A DNA stretch of 20,462 bases from a virus, in IMG/VR virus record IMGVR_UViG_3300029839_000013, positions 1 to 20,462 of that record. One strand, written 5' to 3'. Position numbers and translations under genes: made by a program. A model generated the notes under the pieces. The model was not told the origin of the DNA, did not search any database, and saw nothing but the letters and a program-made list of their open reading frames with translations. Below, in pieces: positions 1-20,462 of the stretch (its first letter is position 1; each line of letters starts with the position of its first letter).

Positions 1-99
1 ATAACCGCCCGTAAATATATTGTCGTCGAAAATTTGCCCTTTCGTCTTCAAATATTGGATAATAAAATACATTTCGTTAAATTCACTAGGCGTTAATAC
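1..99. repeat. Terminal direct repeat, identical to 20364-20462. Interpreted as assembly overlap of a circular or terminally redundant genome.
   Basis: Exact 99-bp identity between the two window ends. A minus-strand ORF reads through the junction in frame. Confidence 0.9.
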
Positions 100-405
100 C
101 TCTTTTGTCTGCAAATCTCGCCATTTTTTATAATCTTTTGAATTTTTAGACAAGTTGTCTATTTCGTCAGGCATAACGCAATATTTTTTATAAAAATTTT
201 CAGGCTCTAAAATATAACTGTGCCACATTTTCCCCGCCAGCATAGCCGGGCTTGTTTTTTCCTCATATAAAGGATTTAGGCGGGAATTGAACCAATATTT
301 AACCGGGCTTTCAAGTATTTTTTTCATACCTGAAAAATCAAGTCTTTCGACGTCCGAAAAATATTCATTTTCTGACATATTAAAATATATACCGTCTTTG
401 TGCAT
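1..405 (-). CDS. N-terminal portion of the same wrapped exonuclease gene. Bases 1-99 duplicate 20364-20462.
   Basis: I translated the minus strand from 405 down to 1 and found no stop codon. It is in frame with the ATG at 72-70 that starts the ORF-track protein. The N-terminal motif GIYFNMSENEYFSDVERLDFSGMKKILESPVKYW resembles the DUF3799/exonuclease VIII-like N-terminus (YHa...S.S.LK...SP). Confidence 0.55.
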   Translation of the reverse strand, partial: MHKDGIYFNMSENEYFSDVERLDFSGMKKILESPVKYWFNSRLNPLYEEKTSPAMLAGKMWHSYILEPENFYKKYCVMPDEIDNLSKNSKDYKKWRDLQTKEVLTPSEFNEMYFIIQYLKTKGQIFDDNIFTGGY

Positions 406-1207: not shown

Positions 1208-1351
1208 ATGAAAAAAATACAATTTTCTATTTGTGTCGATGAAGACACGTTAAAAAAGATTGATAAACTGGCTAATAATGAGGGACGCAGCCGGTCGCAA
1301 ATGATTTTATATATTTTGAAACTTTTTTTAAAAAAAGAGGGGAGCGAATAG
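1208..1351 (+). CDS. 47-aa ribbon-helix-helix (CopG/Arc/MetJ-type) DNA-binding protein.
   Basis: ATG at 1208 after AAAGGGGGG. The sequence MKKIQFSICVDEDTLKKIDKLANNEGRSRSQMILYILKLFLKKEGSE fits a beta-strand followed by two helices. It is below the ORF-track size cutoff. Confidence 0.6.
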   Translation: MKKIQFSICVDEDTLKKIDKLANNEGRSRSQMILYILKLFLKKEGSE

Positions 1352-7234: not shown

Positions 7235-7738
7235 CTAACCCCTCGGAAGTAAATTAATAACATTATCAACTTTATCAAGTACGGTCGCGGCTAATTGTTT
7301 GGCCGGAACGCTTGAAAACGTCATCTTGACTAAATATTGATTAGTGCCTTCAATCGTTGATTTGCTATAATCGGTTAAATAACCTTGCAACATAAAGCTA
7401 CTATCGTAGTATATTGTAATAAAATAGCTCATGTCCGTCGGGTCTTTGCTGTCGACTAATTCATAAACTTTTGCGGCCAAGCTTGTAAATGTTGTTCCAA
7501 CAACATTATCCTTTATAATCCTAAGTGTTAAAGTTAACGATTGTATGACTTTACGTTGATAAGTTAGCCCGCCAATTGTCTGGCTTTCAATTCTTACAGC
7601 ATCCTTTACATCATCAGCCATAATCCCGCTTATTTTTTCATCCAAATAAATAGGAACGACAGCAGGCAAGCCAATACTCCCAATGCTTAATATATTGGGG
7701 AATGTGAATACAATAACCGGTGCTTCTCCGCCTATCAT
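7235..7738 (-). CDS. Hypothetical tail protein immediately after the tape measure gene. Possibly a baseplate hub or tail-tip component.
   Basis: ATGA overlap with the TMP stop. 167 aa. Confidence 0.4.
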   Translation of the reverse strand: MIGGEAPVIVFTFPNILSIGSIGLPAVVPIYLDEKISGIMADDVKDAVRIESQTIGGLTYQRKVIQSLTLTLRIIKDNVVGTTFTSLAAKVYELVDSKDPTDMSYFITIYYDSSFMLQGYLTDYSKSTIEGTNQYLVKMTFSSVPAKQLAATVLDKVDNVINLLPRG

Positions 7739-16782: not shown

Positions 16783-17166
16783 CTAATCTCCGCTACCTTT
16801 AACCATTTCTGCAACCTTCAAAACTAAATTTACAAGCGTTTCATCCTCCATACTGTCAAGTCTTGCAGTTAAAGCGACAACGGCATTTTTAAACATGTCT
16901 TCAAAAAGAACTTCGCTAGGCTTTTCTTCAACTTCCTTCTTCGCAAGCTGAATAATCGCAACTTCTTTTTTTCGGCGCTCCCGTCTTTTCCGGCGGTCGT
17001 CTGTCTCTTTAACACGCTTTTCTATTCCTTTAGTGATATATTGACATAATTTGTTAACCGTTGGCAGCGAAATGTTTAACATGTTTGATATTGTCCGTTG
17101 GTCGGTTATTCCGCGGTCGATTAAAAGTTTAACCTTGTTTAACTTTTCTTCTGTTCTTTTCTGCAT
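16783..17166 (-). CDS. terS: Terminase small subunit. The start is revised to the MQKRTEEKLNK Met.
   Basis: Helix-turn-helix-like segment LIDRGITDQRTISNMLNISLPTVNKL and a basic RRKRRERRKK stretch. It is directly upstream of TerL. The ORF-track N-terminal extension overlaps the promoter and terminator. Confidence 0.55.
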   Translation of the reverse strand: MQKRTEEKLNKVKLLIDRGITDQRTISNMLNISLPTVNKLCQYITKGIEKRVKETDDRRKRRERRKKEVAIIQLAKKEVEEKPSEVLFEDMFKNAVVALTARLDSMEDETLVNLVLKVAEMVKGSGD

Positions 17167-17215
17167 TTTCAATCTTTTAGCATATGCCGTTAAATTACTT
17201 ATTAAAACTTTAACA

Positions 17216-17244
17216 AGTTTAACTTTTAAATTTCCTATCGTCAA
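17216..17244 (-). promoter_or_regulatory. Candidate sigma70-type late promoter upstream of terS.
   Basis: On the minus strand: TTGACG, a 17-nt spacer, then TAAACT. Lies just downstream of a terminator and upstream of the terS ATG. Confidence 0.35.
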
Positions 17245-17245
17245 T

Positions 17246-17272
17246 AAAAAAGGGGGAGCCTTTACTCTCCCC
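17246..17272 (-). terminator. Rho-independent terminator separating the early genes from the packaging/late operon.
   Basis: Minus-strand hairpin GGGGAG-(8 nt)-CTCCCC followed by TTTTTT. Confidence 0.5.
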
Positions 17273-17283
17273 TCTCTCTTCAT

Positions 17284-17499
17284 CTATTTATTATCTGCCG
17301 GCGGGTTTAATGACATTAGCCCCAGAGACAGGACCGCAAATATAGGCGTTCGATTGTTGGCATTCACGAGGGAGTTAATCGTTGATAAGTGTTTAACAAT
17401 TTTGCTATCGTCTTCCTCGCTCATAATCATGCCTAGAGCTTCGTTAATCAACCGTAAAACGTTTAATTGTTCATTGCTTAAAGTTCTCAAATTTTTCAT
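17284..17499 (-). CDS. Hypothetical 71-aa early protein.
   Basis: ATG start (MKNLRT...). The ORF track used an upstream TTG. Confidence 0.4.
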   Translation of the reverse strand: MKNLRTLSNEQLNVLRLINEALGMIMSEEDDSKIVKHLSTINSLVNANNRTPIFAVLSLGLMSLNPPADNK

Positions 17500-17671
17500 T
17501 GCCTTTTTGCCTTTCTTCAATATACTTTGTTATTTCCTCAGCTAAAACCGCTAAATCTTTTAAATCTACGGCAATCTTGAAACAATCGCCTTCATAATTG
17601 CCAAATTCTAAAACTTCGTGCCCGATGCCACTATAGACGCGAACATAGCACCTCTTTTTATCATTCCTCAA
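17471..17671 (-). CDS. Hypothetical 66-aa early protein.
   Basis: Compact ORF overlapping its neighbours by short ATG/stop overlaps. Confidence 0.4.
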   Translation of the reverse strand: MRNDKKRCYVRVYSGIGHEVLEFGNYEGDCFKIAVDLKDLAVLAEEITKYIEERQKGNEKFENFKQ

Positions 17672-17942
17672 AGAAATATTCTCCTTCGCTATCTACGGCC
17701 GCAAAAAGCACGTTTTTGTTGAAATCCTCCAACTGGATAACCGAGCAATAACTTATAATCATCTCTTTTGTGATGCCTTTATTTTTTGCCATTTCAATAA
17801 TTGACTTTTGCGACTTTTTAGCAAGTTCAATTTGGCGTTGCCGGTCTAAATACATTTGGCCGTAATAACGTAACTCTTCCGAAAAGCCTTTTTTATTACC
17901 GCAATTGATATTTTTACAAACTGGGAACATAAAATTACTCAT
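17661..17942 (-). CDS. Hypothetical 93-aa protein with an N-terminal Cys cluster (CKNINCGN).
   Basis: ORF with an upstream overlap with the 55-aa ORF. Confidence 0.4.
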   Translation of the reverse strand: MSNFMFPVCKNINCGNKKGFSEELRYYGQMYLDRQRQIELAKKSQKSIIEMAKNKGITKEMIISYCSVIQLEDFNKNVLFAAVDSEGEYFFEE

Positions 17943-18102
17943 TTTTATTGTCCTCTCTCAGTTTTTTTAAAACTTCTTTCAAATAAGCAAATTCGGCTTC
18001 TGTTAAAAAAAATTGCCTTTGCTTGCGTCCGCTCTTTTTTTGAGCCTCACGGTATCTTTTTGCCCGTTCTCGCAGTATTTTATGGTATTCATCTAACTTC
18101 AT
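17935..18102 (-). CDS. Unlisted 55-aa basic ORF (MKLDEYHKILRERAKRYREAQKKSGRKQRQFFLTEAEFAYLKEVLKKLREDNKNE).
   Basis: Fills the 146-bp gap between two ORF-track genes. Its stop overlaps the next ATG (AAAAATGAGTAA). Confidence 0.3.
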   Translation of the reverse strand: MKLDEYHKILRERAKRYREAQKKSGRKQRQFFLTEAEFAYLKEVLKKLREDNKNE

Positions 18103-18364
18103 TTATTATCCTTTCACATTCAATTAAAAATCTGTTTTTCTTATCTTGAAAAACCGCCCTTAAATCGTCAATCAATTCTTCTTTTGCGGTCTCTAAGGCG
18201 TCGGCTTGGTCACCCCTCCCGTAATCCTCTACATCGACGCCGAACCAATTTTTAAACACAATTTTGGCGCTTGATTGCAAAATTGAAAGCTGGCGGCTGT
18301 AAACTTCTTCGGCCAAACCGTTATTTAATTCGCTCATTTCGCCCCTTAATAAATCACTATTCAT
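18089..18364 (-). CDS. Hypothetical 91-aa acidic protein. First gene downstream of promoter/operator copy 1.
   Basis: A GGGGG ribosome-binding site lies 8 nt upstream of the ATG. It begins MNSDLL, the same six codons found in the duplicated copy. Confidence 0.5.
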   Translation of the reverse strand: MNSDLLRGEMSELNNGLAEEVYSRQLSILQSSAKIVFKNWFGVDVEDYGRGDQADALETAKEELIDDLRAVFQDKKNRFLIECERIINEVR

Positions 18365-18423
18365 TTTACTAACCCCCTTTGTTATTATGTTATTAGTATG
18401 ATACTAATATTTTACGATGTCAA
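18365..18423 (-). promoter_or_regulatory. Sigma70-type promoter with an embedded 19-bp perfect palindromic operator (copy 1).
   Basis: On the minus strand: TTGACA, a 17-nt spacer, then CATACT. The palindrome TATTAGTAT-G-ATACTAATA spans the spacer and the -10. Confidence 0.6.
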
Positions 18424-18434
18424 CACCTTTTTTT

Positions 18435-18468
18435 AAAAAAAACACCCTATTTTTTAGGGTGTTTTTAA
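18435..18468. terminator. Rho-independent terminator after the DUF1566 gene.
   Basis: AAAAACACCCTA-ttttt-TAGGGTGTTTTT. T-runs are present in both orientations. Confidence 0.6.
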
Positions 18469-18489
18469 AAAATAGTTAAATGGATAAAA

Positions 18490-18900
18490 TTAAAAAGCTA
18501 GAACCGGACGAACGTAGGTGCTATCGTAGTTGCTCTTACCGTAGTCGTACCTGGTACCGTCACTCATACGCAACCTCCACGCATAGTTGCTGTCGTACTC
18601 AGTAGAGGACCAGTACCAGCATTCTTTTAACTCCGGCAGGTTAGCGGCGCTCAAAGCGGCATTGATTTTGTCTTTGTTCAAAAAAATTCCGGTTAGTTCA
18701 TCAATAGTAGGGCAGCGGCCACCGGCGGATTGGCAAAACTGTTGCGCTTCGTCAAAATTAAGCCATTCCTCGCTCTCAACCGGCATAATAGCGATTTCGT
18801 GCGTGTCGGTAACATTGCACAATATGCCGGCAATCGTTTTAGACTGATCAAGCTCTTCCGAGCGCGTTCCGTCAGTGTAAATGTATGCTCCTGTTTTCAT
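18490..18900 (-). CDS. DUF1566 (Lcl C-terminal domain-like) protein.
   Basis: GRCPTIDEL...YWSSTEY...YVRPV matches the DUF1566 pattern WRLPT.eEL...YWSST...vRcV. Strong AAGGAGAA ribosome-binding site. Confidence 0.55.
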   Translation of the reverse strand: MKTGAYIYTDGTRSEELDQSKTIAGILCNVTDTHEIAIMPVESEEWLNFDEAQQFCQSAGGRCPTIDELTGIFLNKDKINAALSAANLPELKECWYWSSTEYDSNYAWRLRMSDGTRYDYGKSNYDSTYVRPVLAF

Positions 18901-18910
18901 TTTTTTCTCC

Positions 18911-19045
18911 TTATATTAAAAAAGTTAAAATAAATATTGCTGTTGAATACCCACAAAAAAAACCAATCAAAAAATCGTCTATGTTTAACACTCTTTTTTT
19001 TCGTAGTGGCGCGGTGGCTTCAAATTTAAGTAAATCACTATTCAT
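18911..19045 (-). CDS. 44-aa peptide with a hydrophobic C-terminus (MNSDLLKFEATAPLRKKRVLNIDDFLIGFFCGYSTAIFILTFLI). Speculative.
   Basis: Starts with the duplicated RBS and first six codons of the 91-aa gene. Its stop overlaps the ribosome-binding site of the DUF1566 gene. Confidence 0.3.
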   Translation of the reverse strand: MNSDLLKFEATAPLRKKRVLNIDDFLIGFFCGYSTAIFILTFLI

Positions 19046-19104
19046 TTTGTTAACCCCCTTTGTTATTATGTTATTAGTATGATACTAATATTTTACGATG
19101 TCAA
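19046..19104 (-). promoter_or_regulatory. Promoter/operator copy 2.
   Basis: 75 of 77 bp identical to copy 1, including TTGACA, the 17-nt spacer, CATACT, the 19-bp palindrome and the GGGGG ribosome-binding site. Confidence 0.6.
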
Positions 19105-19107
19105 CAC

Positions 19108-19482
19108 TTAATTATAATTTTCTTTTATTTTTTTTAGAGAAACATCGTAACAATCTAAAAATGAATAAGGAATTTTCATATTTCCTTGCTTTAGCATCAA
19201 AACAAACGCCGCTTTATCTGGCCTAAATTCAATAATTCCTTCGACATTTAATGCTGATGAATAAACGATGTCGTTATTATATAGCTTATTGCCTAATTTA
19301 TCTTTTTGGCCTGAAAAAAAATCTACACAATAATAAGGCGATTTACGACGGTCATATGTGTTTAATTGCTTATTATTACGCTTTAAATTCCCCTCTGGGC
19401 TAAGATAGTAACCGCAATAATATATCTTTTTCAAGCGTAGTTGATGCCCAACACGGCATAATTTAACAACTCTATAATCCAT
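19108..19482 (-). CDS. YopX-like protein (124 aa).
   Basis: SGQKDKLGNKLYNNDIV...EGIIEF is similar to the YopX core TGLKDKNGKEIYEGDIV...GVV.F. AGGGTG ribosome-binding site. Confidence 0.4.
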   Translation of the reverse strand: MDYRVVKLCRVGHQLRLKKIYYCGYYLSPEGNLKRNNKQLNTYDRRKSPYYCVDFFSGQKDKLGNKLYNNDIVYSSALNVEGIIEFRPDKAAFVLMLKQGNMKIPYSFLDCYDVSLKKIKENYN

Positions 19483-19840
19483 TTCGTAACACCCTAATTT
19501 CTTTAATTTTTTTTAAGCAAACTTCCCGGTTGCCTGAATTATTATACAAGAAAAGCGCCAACTGTTCCGGCTCGGTTACTCCGATGCACTTTAAAAAATG
19601 CTTCTCGTTGCCGTCGATATGTAACATTTGATGACAAACAGGGCAAAGCGGGAGTGTAAACTTATCGTCTGACTTCGTCCCCATTCCTTTACTTTTAACC
19701 TTGGGGAAAGCGAACCCCTCCCAACCTTTGGCCGCCTCCAAATATTCCCGCCTAACCCTTAATAAATGGTGATGCGTCGGCTCTTTTCCGCAGTTTAAAC
19801 ATATCAAACTATCAATAAATTTTAAATGTTTAGCGCTCAT
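19472..19840 (-). CDS. HNH endonuclease.
   Basis: CLNCGK...THHH...N...CPVCHQMLH gives the Cys pairs and His residues in the HNH arrangement. GGAGGTG ribosome-binding site. Confidence 0.55.
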   Translation of the reverse strand: MSAKHLKFIDSLICLNCGKEPTHHHLLRVRREYLEAAKGWEGFAFPKVKSKGMGTKSDDKFTLPLCPVCHQMLHIDGNEKHFLKCIGVTEPEQLALFLYNNSGNREVCLKKIKEIRVLRNGL

Positions 19841-20462
19841 AGTCTGACACCTCCAAAATTTTAAAAAATAGTTGTGGGAAATCTTCGTCTTTTAAAACAG
19901 ATAAATAGTCTTTTTTACCAAGCCAAGCCCGGTTAAGTCCGTACTCTCGGCAATAAAATTTATAAACATCTAATGCTTTTTTTACCTCTCCAGCAGCCAA
20001 ACGATAAAGGTCAGGGCAGGCTCCCGGCATGAAAGCGCGTAACGATGCTTCGGGCACTATCCGGCTAACATAACAAACATAAGGGCTTATGTCCTCTTGT
20101 TGTTTAAGCTCATGCCAAAACTCAACTTGCTTTTTGTCGCCAAATACTTGGCTATTATCAAAAGATTTTGCGGCATTTATGGATTCGCAATAAAAATAAA
20201 GCTGCATATAGACCTTATACTTGATGAAGAAAAGACGACAATAATCGTCAAAATCTTCTACGCTGGCCACTGTCTTTAAATCGATTAACTGTTTAAGCCT
20301 TAAGTAGTCAATGCGCGCCTTACATTTTACAGCTTGATAGGTGAAAAATATAGAGACTTCGGGATAACCGCCCGTAAATATATTGTCGTCGAAAATTTGC
20401 CCTTTCGTCTTCAAATATTGGATAATAAAATACATTTCGTTAAATTCACTAGGCGTTAATAC
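19830..20462 (-). CDS. C-terminal two-thirds of a PD-(D/E)XK exonuclease (DUF3799/RecE-like) gene. The gene continues across the window end into 1-405, and the full product is about 312 aa.
   Basis: The ORF track entry 19830-20435 begins at an internal Met. The same frame stays open upstream through the repeat, to an ATG at about 405 with an AGAGAGGT ribosome-binding site. Putative catalytic core is RIDYL...LIDLKT, matching the D...(D/E)xK pattern. Confidence 0.55.
   Translation of the reverse strand, partial: VLTPSEFNEMYFIIQYLKTKGQIFDDNIFTGGYPEVSIFFTYQAVKCKARIDYLRLKQLIDLKTVASVEDFDDYCRLFFIKYKVYMQLYFYCESINAAKSFDNSQVFGDKKQVEFWHELKQQEDISPYVCYVSRIVPEASLRAFMPGACPDLYRLAAGEVKKALDVYKFYCREYGLNRAWLGKKDYLSVLKDEDFPQLFFKILEVSDYER
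20364..20462. repeat. Second copy of the terminal repeat (same as 1-99).
   Basis: Exact identity to bases 1-99. Confidence 0.9.

Follow-up and report, generated by a model that had tools for sequence, protein, structure and literature searches.

The window analysed here, i.e., the whole 20,462-nt stretch of IMG/VR virus record IMGVR_UViG_3300029839_000013, contains on its minus strand a direct repeat in which one control unit is present twice; the unit comprises a predicted sigma-70-type promoter with a dyad, followed by a 5' leader, a ribosome-binding site and the first six codons. The explanation as a whole, which includes joint switching of the two copies and a role of the repeat in recombination, is given a probability of about 0.55. 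The two copies, referred to as P1 and P2, align without gaps over 87 nt (18350-18436 and 19031-19117, 681 nt from start to start), and the core of the repeat (18350-18426 and 19031-19107) is identical at 75 of 77 positions, the mismatches being located at 18368-18369. The initial annotation of this DNA had described two 77-bp segments with 75/77 identity; the identity and the second interval are correct, while its first interval, 18351-18427, is shifted by one nucleotide (74/77 identical positions at an offset of 681, but 24/77 at the offset of 680 used there). The view that there are two promoter-dyad-leader units, one of which arose by local duplication, is supported. What that account missed is the role of the repeat: it flanks a promoter-gene-terminator cassette, its copies evolve in concert and it appears to behave as a recombination joint. 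The elements of the module are the following.

19031..19117, minus strand: repeat copy 2 (P2 module), with -35 TTGACA at 19104..19099, -10 CATACT at 19081..19076, GGGGG at 19058..19054 and ATG at 19045
18350..18436, minus strand: repeat copy 1 (P1 module), with -35 TTGACA at 18423..18418, -10 CATACT at 18400..18395, GGGGG at 18377..18373 and ATG at 18364
19072-19090, no strand: 19-bp palindrome TATTAGTAT-N-ATACTAATA in P2, putative operator spanning the spacer and the -10
18391-18409, no strand: 19-bp palindrome TATTAGTAT-N-ATACTAATA in P1, putative operator spanning the spacer and the -10

The duplicated promoter module

On the minus strand, each module consists of GTGTTGACA, 17 nt, CATACT, AATAACATAATAACAAAGGGGGTTA, 5 nt and ATG AAT AGT GAT TTA, and the spacer between the -35 and -10 hexamers is 17 nt in P1 as well as in P2. 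The ATG of each copy is continued by the codons for NSDLL, i.e., the first six codons (MNSDLL) are common to both. The hexamers with their spacing, the shared GGGGG ribosome-binding site and the MNSDLL start at 18364 and 19045 had all been recognised in the initial annotation and were found again here on the minus strand. P1 and P2 rank at the top among the sigma-70 consensus matches in the region (10/12 each), and near-consensus hexamers with a spacing of 16-18 bp, as expected of sigma-70 promoters, are present at both copies, with strain variants that carry TATACT. The two sequences are predicted to be strong promoters of the same kind.

Relatives were collected by scans of IMG/VR and metagenomes anchored on the terminase and the DUF968 protein, which gave approximately 40 loci. 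These are free contigs or genomes of ~20-25 kb, mostly from human-gut samples, and comprise close strains that are 95-99% identical to the window (lineage W, with L018-L023 and L058-L062) as well as two sister lineages, A and B, with 55-72% protein identity in structural genes. L018-L022, L056 and L058-L061 all possess the two promoter copies and an intervening cassette, which amounts to at least ten independent metagenome assemblies and rules out that the duplication is an artefact of assembly. The first copy in L056 is located at the contig end and might be due to assembly overlap, and the contigs L023, L062 and L067 end before the second copy. The concern raised earlier, that related phages might expose the duplication as a sporadic assembly artefact, was not borne out, since the duplication was found in all strains seen and analogous duplicated promoters occur in the sister lineages.

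Judged by sequence, the sister lineages show the same design with different sequences at the same locus. Lineage A (L015, L024, L026-L028) possesses two copies of TTGACA-AGTAATCCATAATAGAT-TACTAT, which contain AGTAATC-N7-GATTACT across the spacer and the -10; for this dyad with 7-bp arms, located in the same promoter as that of the window, P was estimated at ~0.03-0.075. At two further sites of lineage A, L025:3063 and L044:605, the dyad spacer is one nucleotide shorter, at 6 nt (AGTAATCC-TAATAGATTACT), and the -35/-10 spacer is thus 16 nt. In lineage B (L010, L031, L032), two copies of a 260-nt module composed of a promoter and a 60-aa open reading frame (ORF) are present. In lineages A and B, the counterparts of the 91-aa and 55-aa genes, which P1 heads in the window, stand behind one promoter copy, and Lcl_C genes stand behind the other; the cassette is located downstream of the operon in these two lineages, whereas it lies upstream of it in lineage W. 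The more distant lineages (L017, L033) have neither a duplicated promoter nor a clear dyad.

The repeat as a proposed recombination joint

P2, a 44-aa ORF, an Lcl_C gene and a terminator constitute a self-contained expression cassette between the 124-aa gene and the P1 operon, i.e., a moron, which reuses the promoter, the leader and the start of the neighbouring P1 operon. Its parts and the corresponding loci in relatives are given below.

18911..19045, minus strand: 44-aa ORF, starting with the duplicated MNSDLL and ending in a hydrophobic C-terminus
18490..18900, minus strand: Lcl_C/DUF1566 protein of 136 aa with its own strong ribosome-binding site, the cargo of the cassette
18438..18466, minus strand: intrinsic terminator (-14.7 kcal/mol and a U-run) that closes the P2 cassette, 14 nt before the -35 of P1
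L019:6940-7347, L020:6940-7888 and L010:7053-7882: Lcl_C loci in relatives, hypervariable cargo

The DNA between the two copies is the most variable stretch among near-identical strains, and the Lcl_C/DUF1566 gene is the most variable gene among strains that share 95-99% identity. The content of the cassette varies from one to two Lcl_C genes (two in L020), and N-terminal halves of Lcl_C are swapped. The 44-aa ORF is near-invariant in the close strains, apart from 1-2 substitutions in L020 and in L056. In all three lineages, the hypervariable cargo consists of free-standing Lcl_C/DUF1566 proteins, which are 120-145 aa long and encoded once or twice per genome. Elsewhere, DUF1566 is described as a C-type-lectin-like domain that diversity-generating retroelements target; a reverse transcriptase was not recognised here.

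Derived states are common to both copies within a genome, namely GGGAGTTAGC in L019, ATACTTATA in L058/L061, and TTGACG, a central T and one G in L056. Such sharing of derived states within single genomes indicates concerted evolution, by gene conversion or recombination between the copies. Moreover, L066 (840-1320) carries the 124-aa gene, a single hybrid promoter with the upstream flank of P2 and the downstream flank of P1, and the 91-aa gene, without any cassette. This arrangement looks like the exact product expected from recombination between P2 and P1, although the contig is only 1.3 kb long, so that it may instead represent a mis-join at the repeat, which counts against its use as evidence. 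We propose that the 77-87-nt repeat would serve as a joint for homologous recombination, with gene conversion keeping the copies alike, and that recombination at the repeat would let the cassette be swapped, duplicated, moved or lost.

The 19-bp palindrome as a putative operator

The 9+1+9 dyad covers the last nine positions of the spacer (positions 9-17), the -10 hexamer and the next 4 nt. Its description as a perfect 19-bp palindrome across the spacer and the -10 in both copies was confirmed at 18391-18409 and 19072-19090, and so was the uniqueness of its half-site: ATTAGTAT is confined in the genome to the four arms of the P1 and P2 dyads, and no further copy of the palindrome was found in the window when up to 3 mismatches were allowed. 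Another perfect palindrome with 9-bp arms, AATGTTGTTCCAACAACATT, is located at 7488-7507 inside a tail-region gene and is probably a chance occurrence. Outside the relatives, IMG/VR returned nine matches to the palindrome, with one site each, on contigs without detectable DNA similarity to the window; these are presumed to be chance matches.

The probability of a dyad with 9-bp arms within a 46-nt promoter window is ~0.006-0.008, and the arms do not exceed 6 bp in the other TTGAC promoters of the window. This local, promoter-window probability is the meaningful statistic for the dyad, rather than the genome-wide expectation. In a comparison of 26 copies, no variation was seen in the left arm or in the inner part of the right arm, and the central base is C, T or A. 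Fixed bases around a free centre fit the pattern of a dimer-binding site, but positions 6-7 of the outer right arm vary and the whole promoter is highly conserved. The palindrome is therefore plausibly a repressor operator, for which the evidence is moderate, and the odds that the dyad is a real one are in our estimate about even.

Other functions were considered for the palindrome. A cos or pac site or a replication origin was ruled out, as the two copies are 681 bp apart and located within promoters and no iterons are present. As RNA, the dyad folds with -4.6 kcal/mol and 8 A-U-rich pairs, which is too weak for an RNA hairpin or a terminator, and a search of Rfam gave no meaningful match for the region. 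It was also considered that the palindrome acts in RNA as a read-through hairpin, i.e., as a processing site or a translational element, given that P2 has no upstream terminator and transcripts of the exonuclease operon would thus include the P2 dyad. However, this appears very improbable: besides the weakness of the hairpin, the predicted start ~7 nt past CATACT leaves nearly all of the dyad upstream of the transcript, P1 is protected from read-through by the terminator before it, and changes in the arms are uncompensated, with no base-pair covariation.

The helix-turn-helix protein and its recurrent loss

The first genes of the P1 operon are conserved, whereas the third ORF of the window turned out to be a deletion product of a longer gene. 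The P1 operon is composed as follows.

18089..18364, minus strand: 91-aa acidic protein, first gene of the P1 operon, in a position conserved in lineages W, A and B
17935..18102, minus strand: 55-aa basic protein, second gene of the P1 operon, candidate DNA binder
17661..17942, minus strand: 93-aa chimeric ORF, a fusion without helix-turn-helix (HTH) domain
17471..17671, minus strand: small ORF of 66 aa
17284..17520, minus strand: small ORF of 71-78 aa
17253..17272, minus strand: second intrinsic terminator (-19.1 kcal/mol and a U-run), which closes the P1 operon
L019:8386-8856: HTH gene of L019, full-length relative of the 93-aa ORF of the window

The initial annotation had found no HTH protein, which is true of the window genome; close relatives (L019, L058, P0010), however, encode an XRE-HTH protein of 152-156 aa in the P1 operon. 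The 156-aa protein of L019 and the 152-aa protein of L058 are the counterparts of the 93-aa ORF of the window and have an N-terminal XRE-type HTH_3 domain, and several extra small ORFs precede the HTH gene in both. The full-length form is the commonest, P0010 standing for 169 member sequences. The HTH protein matches PHROG transcriptional repressors, and AlphaFold2 (AF2) gave a confident HTH fold for residues 1-55, while the confidence for the C-terminal domain was too low to interpret.

The 93-aa ORF of the window combines 18 codons of a small accessory ORF (MSNFMFPVCKNINCGNKK, as in L021:7895-8101) with the last 75 aa of the HTH protein. At the junction (~17888-17897), a 10-nt microhomology, AATAAAAAAG, is common to both parental sequences; the fusion is in frame and the HTH domain is gone. 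The exact fusion protein of the window was found on nine contigs from several samples and therefore represents a circulating genotype, and the deletion of the HTH region accounts for a window genome of 20.4 kb as compared to 21.6-23 kb in relatives. Close relatives add at least three HTH-less fusions (P0007/8, P0013, P0015) that arose independently, each with its own junction, and in L029 of lineage B the HTH gene and the second promoter are both absent. L044 of lineage A has likewise lost the second promoter, and its HTH gene is truncated C-terminally with the HTH domain kept.

This recurrent natural loss of the HTH domain is the most interesting by-product of the analysis, and it supplies natural regulator-minus genotypes to compare with the full-length ones. 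A coupling of HTH loss to decay of the operator was considered and found to be inconsistent with the strains: perfect dyads are found in the HTH-less window and degenerate ones in L056, which also lacks the HTH domain, while L058 has the HTH protein together with 8/9 arms in both copies.

Proposed control and candidate ligands

From the identical core promoter and dyad we infer that P1 and P2 would be switched together. We propose that binding of a dimeric repressor to the dyad, at ~-21 to -3, would make the -10 inaccessible, and that the P1 operon would in its design come closest to accessory operons that repress themselves, as in acr-aca or Cro systems. The earlier notion of a repressor-controlled early switch stands as regards the position of the dyad, since a repressor placed over the spacer and the -10 would keep RNA polymerase off the promoter. 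It does not stand as regards P1 and P2 being the first early promoters, as these are located inside the leftward gene string, downstream of the exonuclease, DUF968 and 124-aa genes, which starts at ~405-539. In L054, a duplicated promoter of the same type drives the DUF968 operon, which suggests that P1 and P2 may belong to the same temporal class as the early genes.

Several observations weigh against control of both promoters by an operator of this kind. Palindromes with 9-bp arms and a loop of 0-3 nt are expected ~0.93 times per genome of this composition, that is, by chance about once per genome. Positions 6-7 of the outer right arm vary in several strains with no compensating change in the left arm, and the conservation of the dyad among strains is scarcely above that of the whole promoter. 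The dyad of lineage B, with arms of 5-6 bp, is not significant. Since no terminator precedes P2, read-through transcription also reaches the P2 cassette. Finally, the HTH domain or gene was lost at least five times (window, P0007/8, P0013, P0015, L029), the HTH-less genotype of the window (9 contigs) retains two perfect dyads, and lineages W, A and B have a near-identical recognition helix, SEDYIS[K/A]IER, in spite of dyads that are neither alike in sequence nor placed alike.

Part of these findings would also be in line with the absence of any operator, where the repeat would be a portable promoter or linker derived from shuffling of the promoter early stem-loop (PeSL) or moron type and the AT-rich palindrome would be incidental or structural. 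The number of palindromes expected by chance, the uncompensated drift of the outer right arm and the duplicated promoters without significant dyad in lineage B and L054 fit this explanation, as does the fact that the repeat clearly mediates conversion and cassette turnover. The three terminator and TTGAC composites of the genome resemble PeSL units, and PeSL stem-loops may be located between the -35 and the -10 (PMC2839356). Nevertheless, we consider this explanation rather unlikely: the dyad is improbable within the promoter window (P ~0.007) and placed exactly over the -10, its central base is the sole freely varying position with flanking bases fixed in the 26 copies, lineage A independently has a dyad with 7-bp arms at the same promoter, and the RNA fold of -4.6 kcal/mol is not that of a PeSL-type terminator.

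If the dyad is an operator, the XRE-HTH protein would be the best single candidate for the repressor in the full-length relatives. Its binding to the dyad is tentative, and we regard it as the least doubtful of the named ligands; the recognition helix that stays constant while the dyads differ argues against it. In the window, with the HTH domain deleted, the promoters would be derepressed, or the ribbon-helix-helix (RHH) protein or the 55-aa basic protein would act. These two proteins had been put forward as ligands in the initial annotation; both exist and are retained as candidates. What is left of the probability falls to a host factor or to the dyad having no ligand. Co-variation with the dyads was uninformative as a pointer to the ligand, because lineages W, A and B share one HTH helix, while the beta-strand of the RHH protein differs in W and is the same in A and B. 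Likewise, the A and B genomes differ over the whole left arm (67-75% identity), so that no single gene stands out. The RHH gene is located as follows.

1208..1351, plus strand: CopG-like RHH protein of 47 aa (RHH_1 E=3.4e-7, CopG 1b01 E=0.01), candidate ligand

The RHH protein might repress both promoters in trans, as a tetramer with one dimer per arm. Arc and Mnt at Pant of P22 and CopG at Pcr bind in this manner, with one RHH dimer per operator arm and tetramer binding. The protein is the only recognisable DNA-binding protein left in the genome, with matches to PHROG repressor families, and it is 100% identical in all close strains, including those without HTH domain. By analogy with Arc and CopG, the distance of 10 bp between the centres of the dyad arms would suit two RHH dimers on one face of the DNA. 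Its predicted DNA-facing beta-strand reads KIQFSICV in lineage W and KQYCIR in lineages A and B, and the dyads differ too; however, the strand is identical in A and B, and yet the dyads of these two lineages differ. Furthermore, the RHH gene is encoded on the opposite strand, ~2.6 kb from P2 around the circle (17 kb in window coordinates). RHH repressors usually autoregulate, whereas neither dyad nor half-site is present near the RHH promoter, where inverted repeats are limited to A/T runs at ~405-539. The 9-bp arm also does not have the internal pseudo-symmetry that an RHH dimer normally reads. On balance, a role of the RHH protein as the repressor is unlikely.

The third candidate is the 55-aa basic protein (17935-18102), which would be an autorepressor of the P1 operon. 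In lineages W, A and B alike, its gene always comes immediately after the 91-aa gene, and every HTH-deletion variant has kept it. The strongly basic N-terminal half diverges between W, A and B and in L056, a strain with degenerate dyads, while the C-terminal half is conserved; L056, however, is more divergent throughout, so that this co-variation is not specific. AF2 modelled a helix, an extended segment and a helix at a pLDDT of 80, which would be compatible with a dimeric DNA binder. Against this, Pfam, PHROGs, a PDB sequence profile, hhalign versus the RHH protein of the same genome, and Foldseek gave no match to a DNA-binding family, and the model resembled no known fold. That the protein is a cryptic RHH protein was likewise unsupported by hhalign, the PDB profile search and Foldseek. 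Binding of the dyad by the 55-aa protein is in our view less probable still than binding by the RHH protein.

A wider reading of the repeated promoter and putative operator would join control and recombination. The dyad module would be a portable cassette that wires interchangeable counter-defence or accessory genes (Lcl_C, small ORFs) to an Aca/Cro-like HTH autorepressor and at the same time provides the homology for swapping them, as a hybrid of PeSL and aca, and microhomology deletions would discard the repressor domain and give rise to derepressed, shorter and widely circulating genomes. In this full form the proposal is speculative and we do not expect all of it to hold. If it does, the Lcl_C/DUF1566 proteins and the variable small ORFs would represent accessory, possibly counter-defence, cargo.

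Genome context and transcription layout

Bases 1-99 of the window recur at 20364-20462, and this 99-nt terminal overlap identifies the window as a phage genome of 20,363 bp that is complete and closes into a circle. Nearly all genes are encoded on the minus strand; the plus strand (504-1351) carries only a 217-aa gene and the 47-aa RHH gene. The minus-strand gene string starts at a short divergent intergenic region at ~405-539 and continues with the PDDEXK/DUF3799 exonuclease, the DUF968/HNH-like gene, the 124-aa gene, the duplicated-promoter region and the genes for terminase, portal, head, tail and lysis. The exonuclease gene crosses the junction of the window and is for this reason absent from the ORF list, which contains only a 201-aa fragment of it. 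Every recognisable promoter in the genome is sigma-70-like with TTGAC at the -35. The relevant features are listed here.

405..1 and 20363..19830, minus strand: PDDEXK/DUF3799 exonuclease of 312 aa, spanning the window junction
18466-18418, minus strand: composite of terminator hairpin, T-run and TTGAC(A/G), preceding the P1 operon
17272-17239, minus strand: composite of the same kind, preceding the terminase genes
2513-2474, minus strand: composite of the same kind, preceding the lysis genes

These three terminator-promoter composites form a PeSL-like layout that cuts the genome into insulated transcription units. Owing to the terminator upstream of P1, the operon of the 91-aa and 55-aa genes relies on P1 alone, while the P2 cassette is fed additionally by read-through. 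Directly after the second terminator, TTGACG-17-TAAACT (17244..17216) heads the terminase genes. The small subunit of the terminase is listed as an ORF of 166 aa, and the upstream part of it, region 17166-17283, holds the terminator and this promoter; judging from the relatives, the protein probably starts at an internal ATG near 17166 (MQKRTEEKL...).

In the scans of the encoded proteins, which covered about half of the ORFs with the terminase large subunit (TerL) excluded, the exonuclease, the 217-aa phrog_10477 protein and the DUF968/HNH-like protein were the only DNA-metabolism genes found, and none of the products was recognised as a DNA polymerase, a primase/helicase, a replication initiator, an integrase or a partition protein. 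Of the structural genes scanned, most were without a PHROG match. A spanin-like overlapping gene pair is present at 1361-1706 on the minus strand, encoding an 86-aa protein with an N-terminal transmembrane segment and, in another frame, a 71-aa protein with the lipobox LLSGC, which points to a diderm host, as far as such a pair is indicative. The hosts assigned to the relatives through bins of metagenome-assembled genomes are inconsistent (Alphaproteobacteria, Gastranaerophilaceae, Acutalibacteraceae). Among GenBank phages, megablast and blastn gave a sole match of 272 nt with 77% identity to the terminase of Dulem virus 29, and no match for the duplicated region.

Comparison with known systems

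The closest parallel to the repeat is found in the PeSLs of T4-type phages, where repeated sigma-70-like early promoters with stem-loops flank variable ORFans (PMC2839356; PMC4122927). Recombination between PeSLs yields deletions, insertions and mini-circles, and their stem-loop can even be positioned inside the promoter, between the -35 and -10 hexamers (PMC2839356). The region described here shares with them a repeated strong sigma-70-like promoter and a stem-loop terminator, an AT-rich stretch upstream, and the non-essential, highly variable ORFs that are flanked. Homology of ~50-100 bp between the copies, which drives deletion, insertion or replacement of the cassette in PeSLs, may do so here too, and the excision circle would measure 681 bp. 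The combination of promoter and terminator typical of PeSLs is seen at P1, which directly follows the hairpin at 18438-18466, and in the composites at 17272-17239 and 2513-2474, whereas P2 has no hairpin. On the other hand, the phage is 20 kb in size and unrelated to T4, with two copies of the module and two terminator-promoter composites of other sequence. The stem of PeSLs is G/C-rich and located in hyperplastic regions of T4, whereas the dyad here is AT-rich and too weak to terminate, and the repeat runs through the ribosome-binding site into the coding sequence. By this analogy, the module would act in the manner of a PeSL without belonging to the PeSL family.

Repression of acr-aca operons is exerted by the HTH protein Aca, which is encoded downstream and binds to an inverted repeat located within the core promoter (PMC9410906; PMC6765145). 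A dyad in a strong core promoter, followed in full-length relatives by small strain-variable ORFs and then by a conserved HTH gene, is in accordance with this organization, and the predicted logic would likewise be a burst of expression followed by autorepression. An HTH gene at the end of the operon is present in L019, L058 and lineages A and B and missing from the window, where the HTH domain has been deleted. Further differences are the extra C-terminal domain of the HTH protein, its recognition helix that does not co-vary with the dyad, and the duplication of the promoter, which here controls a second unit. No known Acr or Aca family was recognised (Pfam Aca2_YdiL, E=0.015 and 15.9 bits versus a cut-off of 23.8), with no Acr-specific library among those searched.

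Classical morons, as conceived in the Juhala/Hendrix model for lambdoid phages, carry regulatory sequences of foreign origin, and their insertion is attributed to illegitimate recombination. They have been discussed alongside PeSLs (PMC2839356). The P2/44-aa/Lcl_C/terminator unit resembles them as a gene with its own promoter and terminator inside a longer gene string, and its presence and position vary as for a moron, with 1-2 Lcl_C genes in close strains, another position in lineages A and B and absence from L066 (a short contig). In contrast to classical morons, the promoter was here copied from the neighbouring operon and provides homology for exchange.

As for the putative operator, immI of P22 (Arc/Mnt at Pant) and CopG of pMV158 combine a small RHH protein with a symmetric operator of ~20 bp over a sigma-70 core promoter. 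An RHH protein encoded by the element itself and a symmetric candidate operator of ~20 bp overlapping the core promoter are found in the window as well, although the RHH gene is not adjacent to the dyads and there is no site at its own promoter. At OL/OR of lambda, one repressor acts on two promoters with tripartite operators, each an 8+1+8 dyad whose central base pair is not contacted. Here, two promoters carry an identical putative operator of 9+1+9 as compared to 8+1+8, which would equally result in coordinate control; however, the promoters are direct repeats 681 bp apart instead of divergent, with a single dyad each. Library scans of the ORFs gave no indication of lambda-type immunity: neither a divergent cI/cro pair nor an integrase or cI-like gene was found, nothing pointed to lysogeny, and all contigs of relatives are free genomes.

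If the model holds, coordinate operator-based repression and promoter-mediated shuffling would be combined in a single 80-bp sequence, which would make it a compact natural example of both. The feature is a new example of known designs, namely PeSL-like cassettes, morons and autorepressed accessory operons, from an uncharacterised gut phage family. Taken all together, the duplicated promoter does not overturn current understanding and represents a familiar kind of phage wiring.

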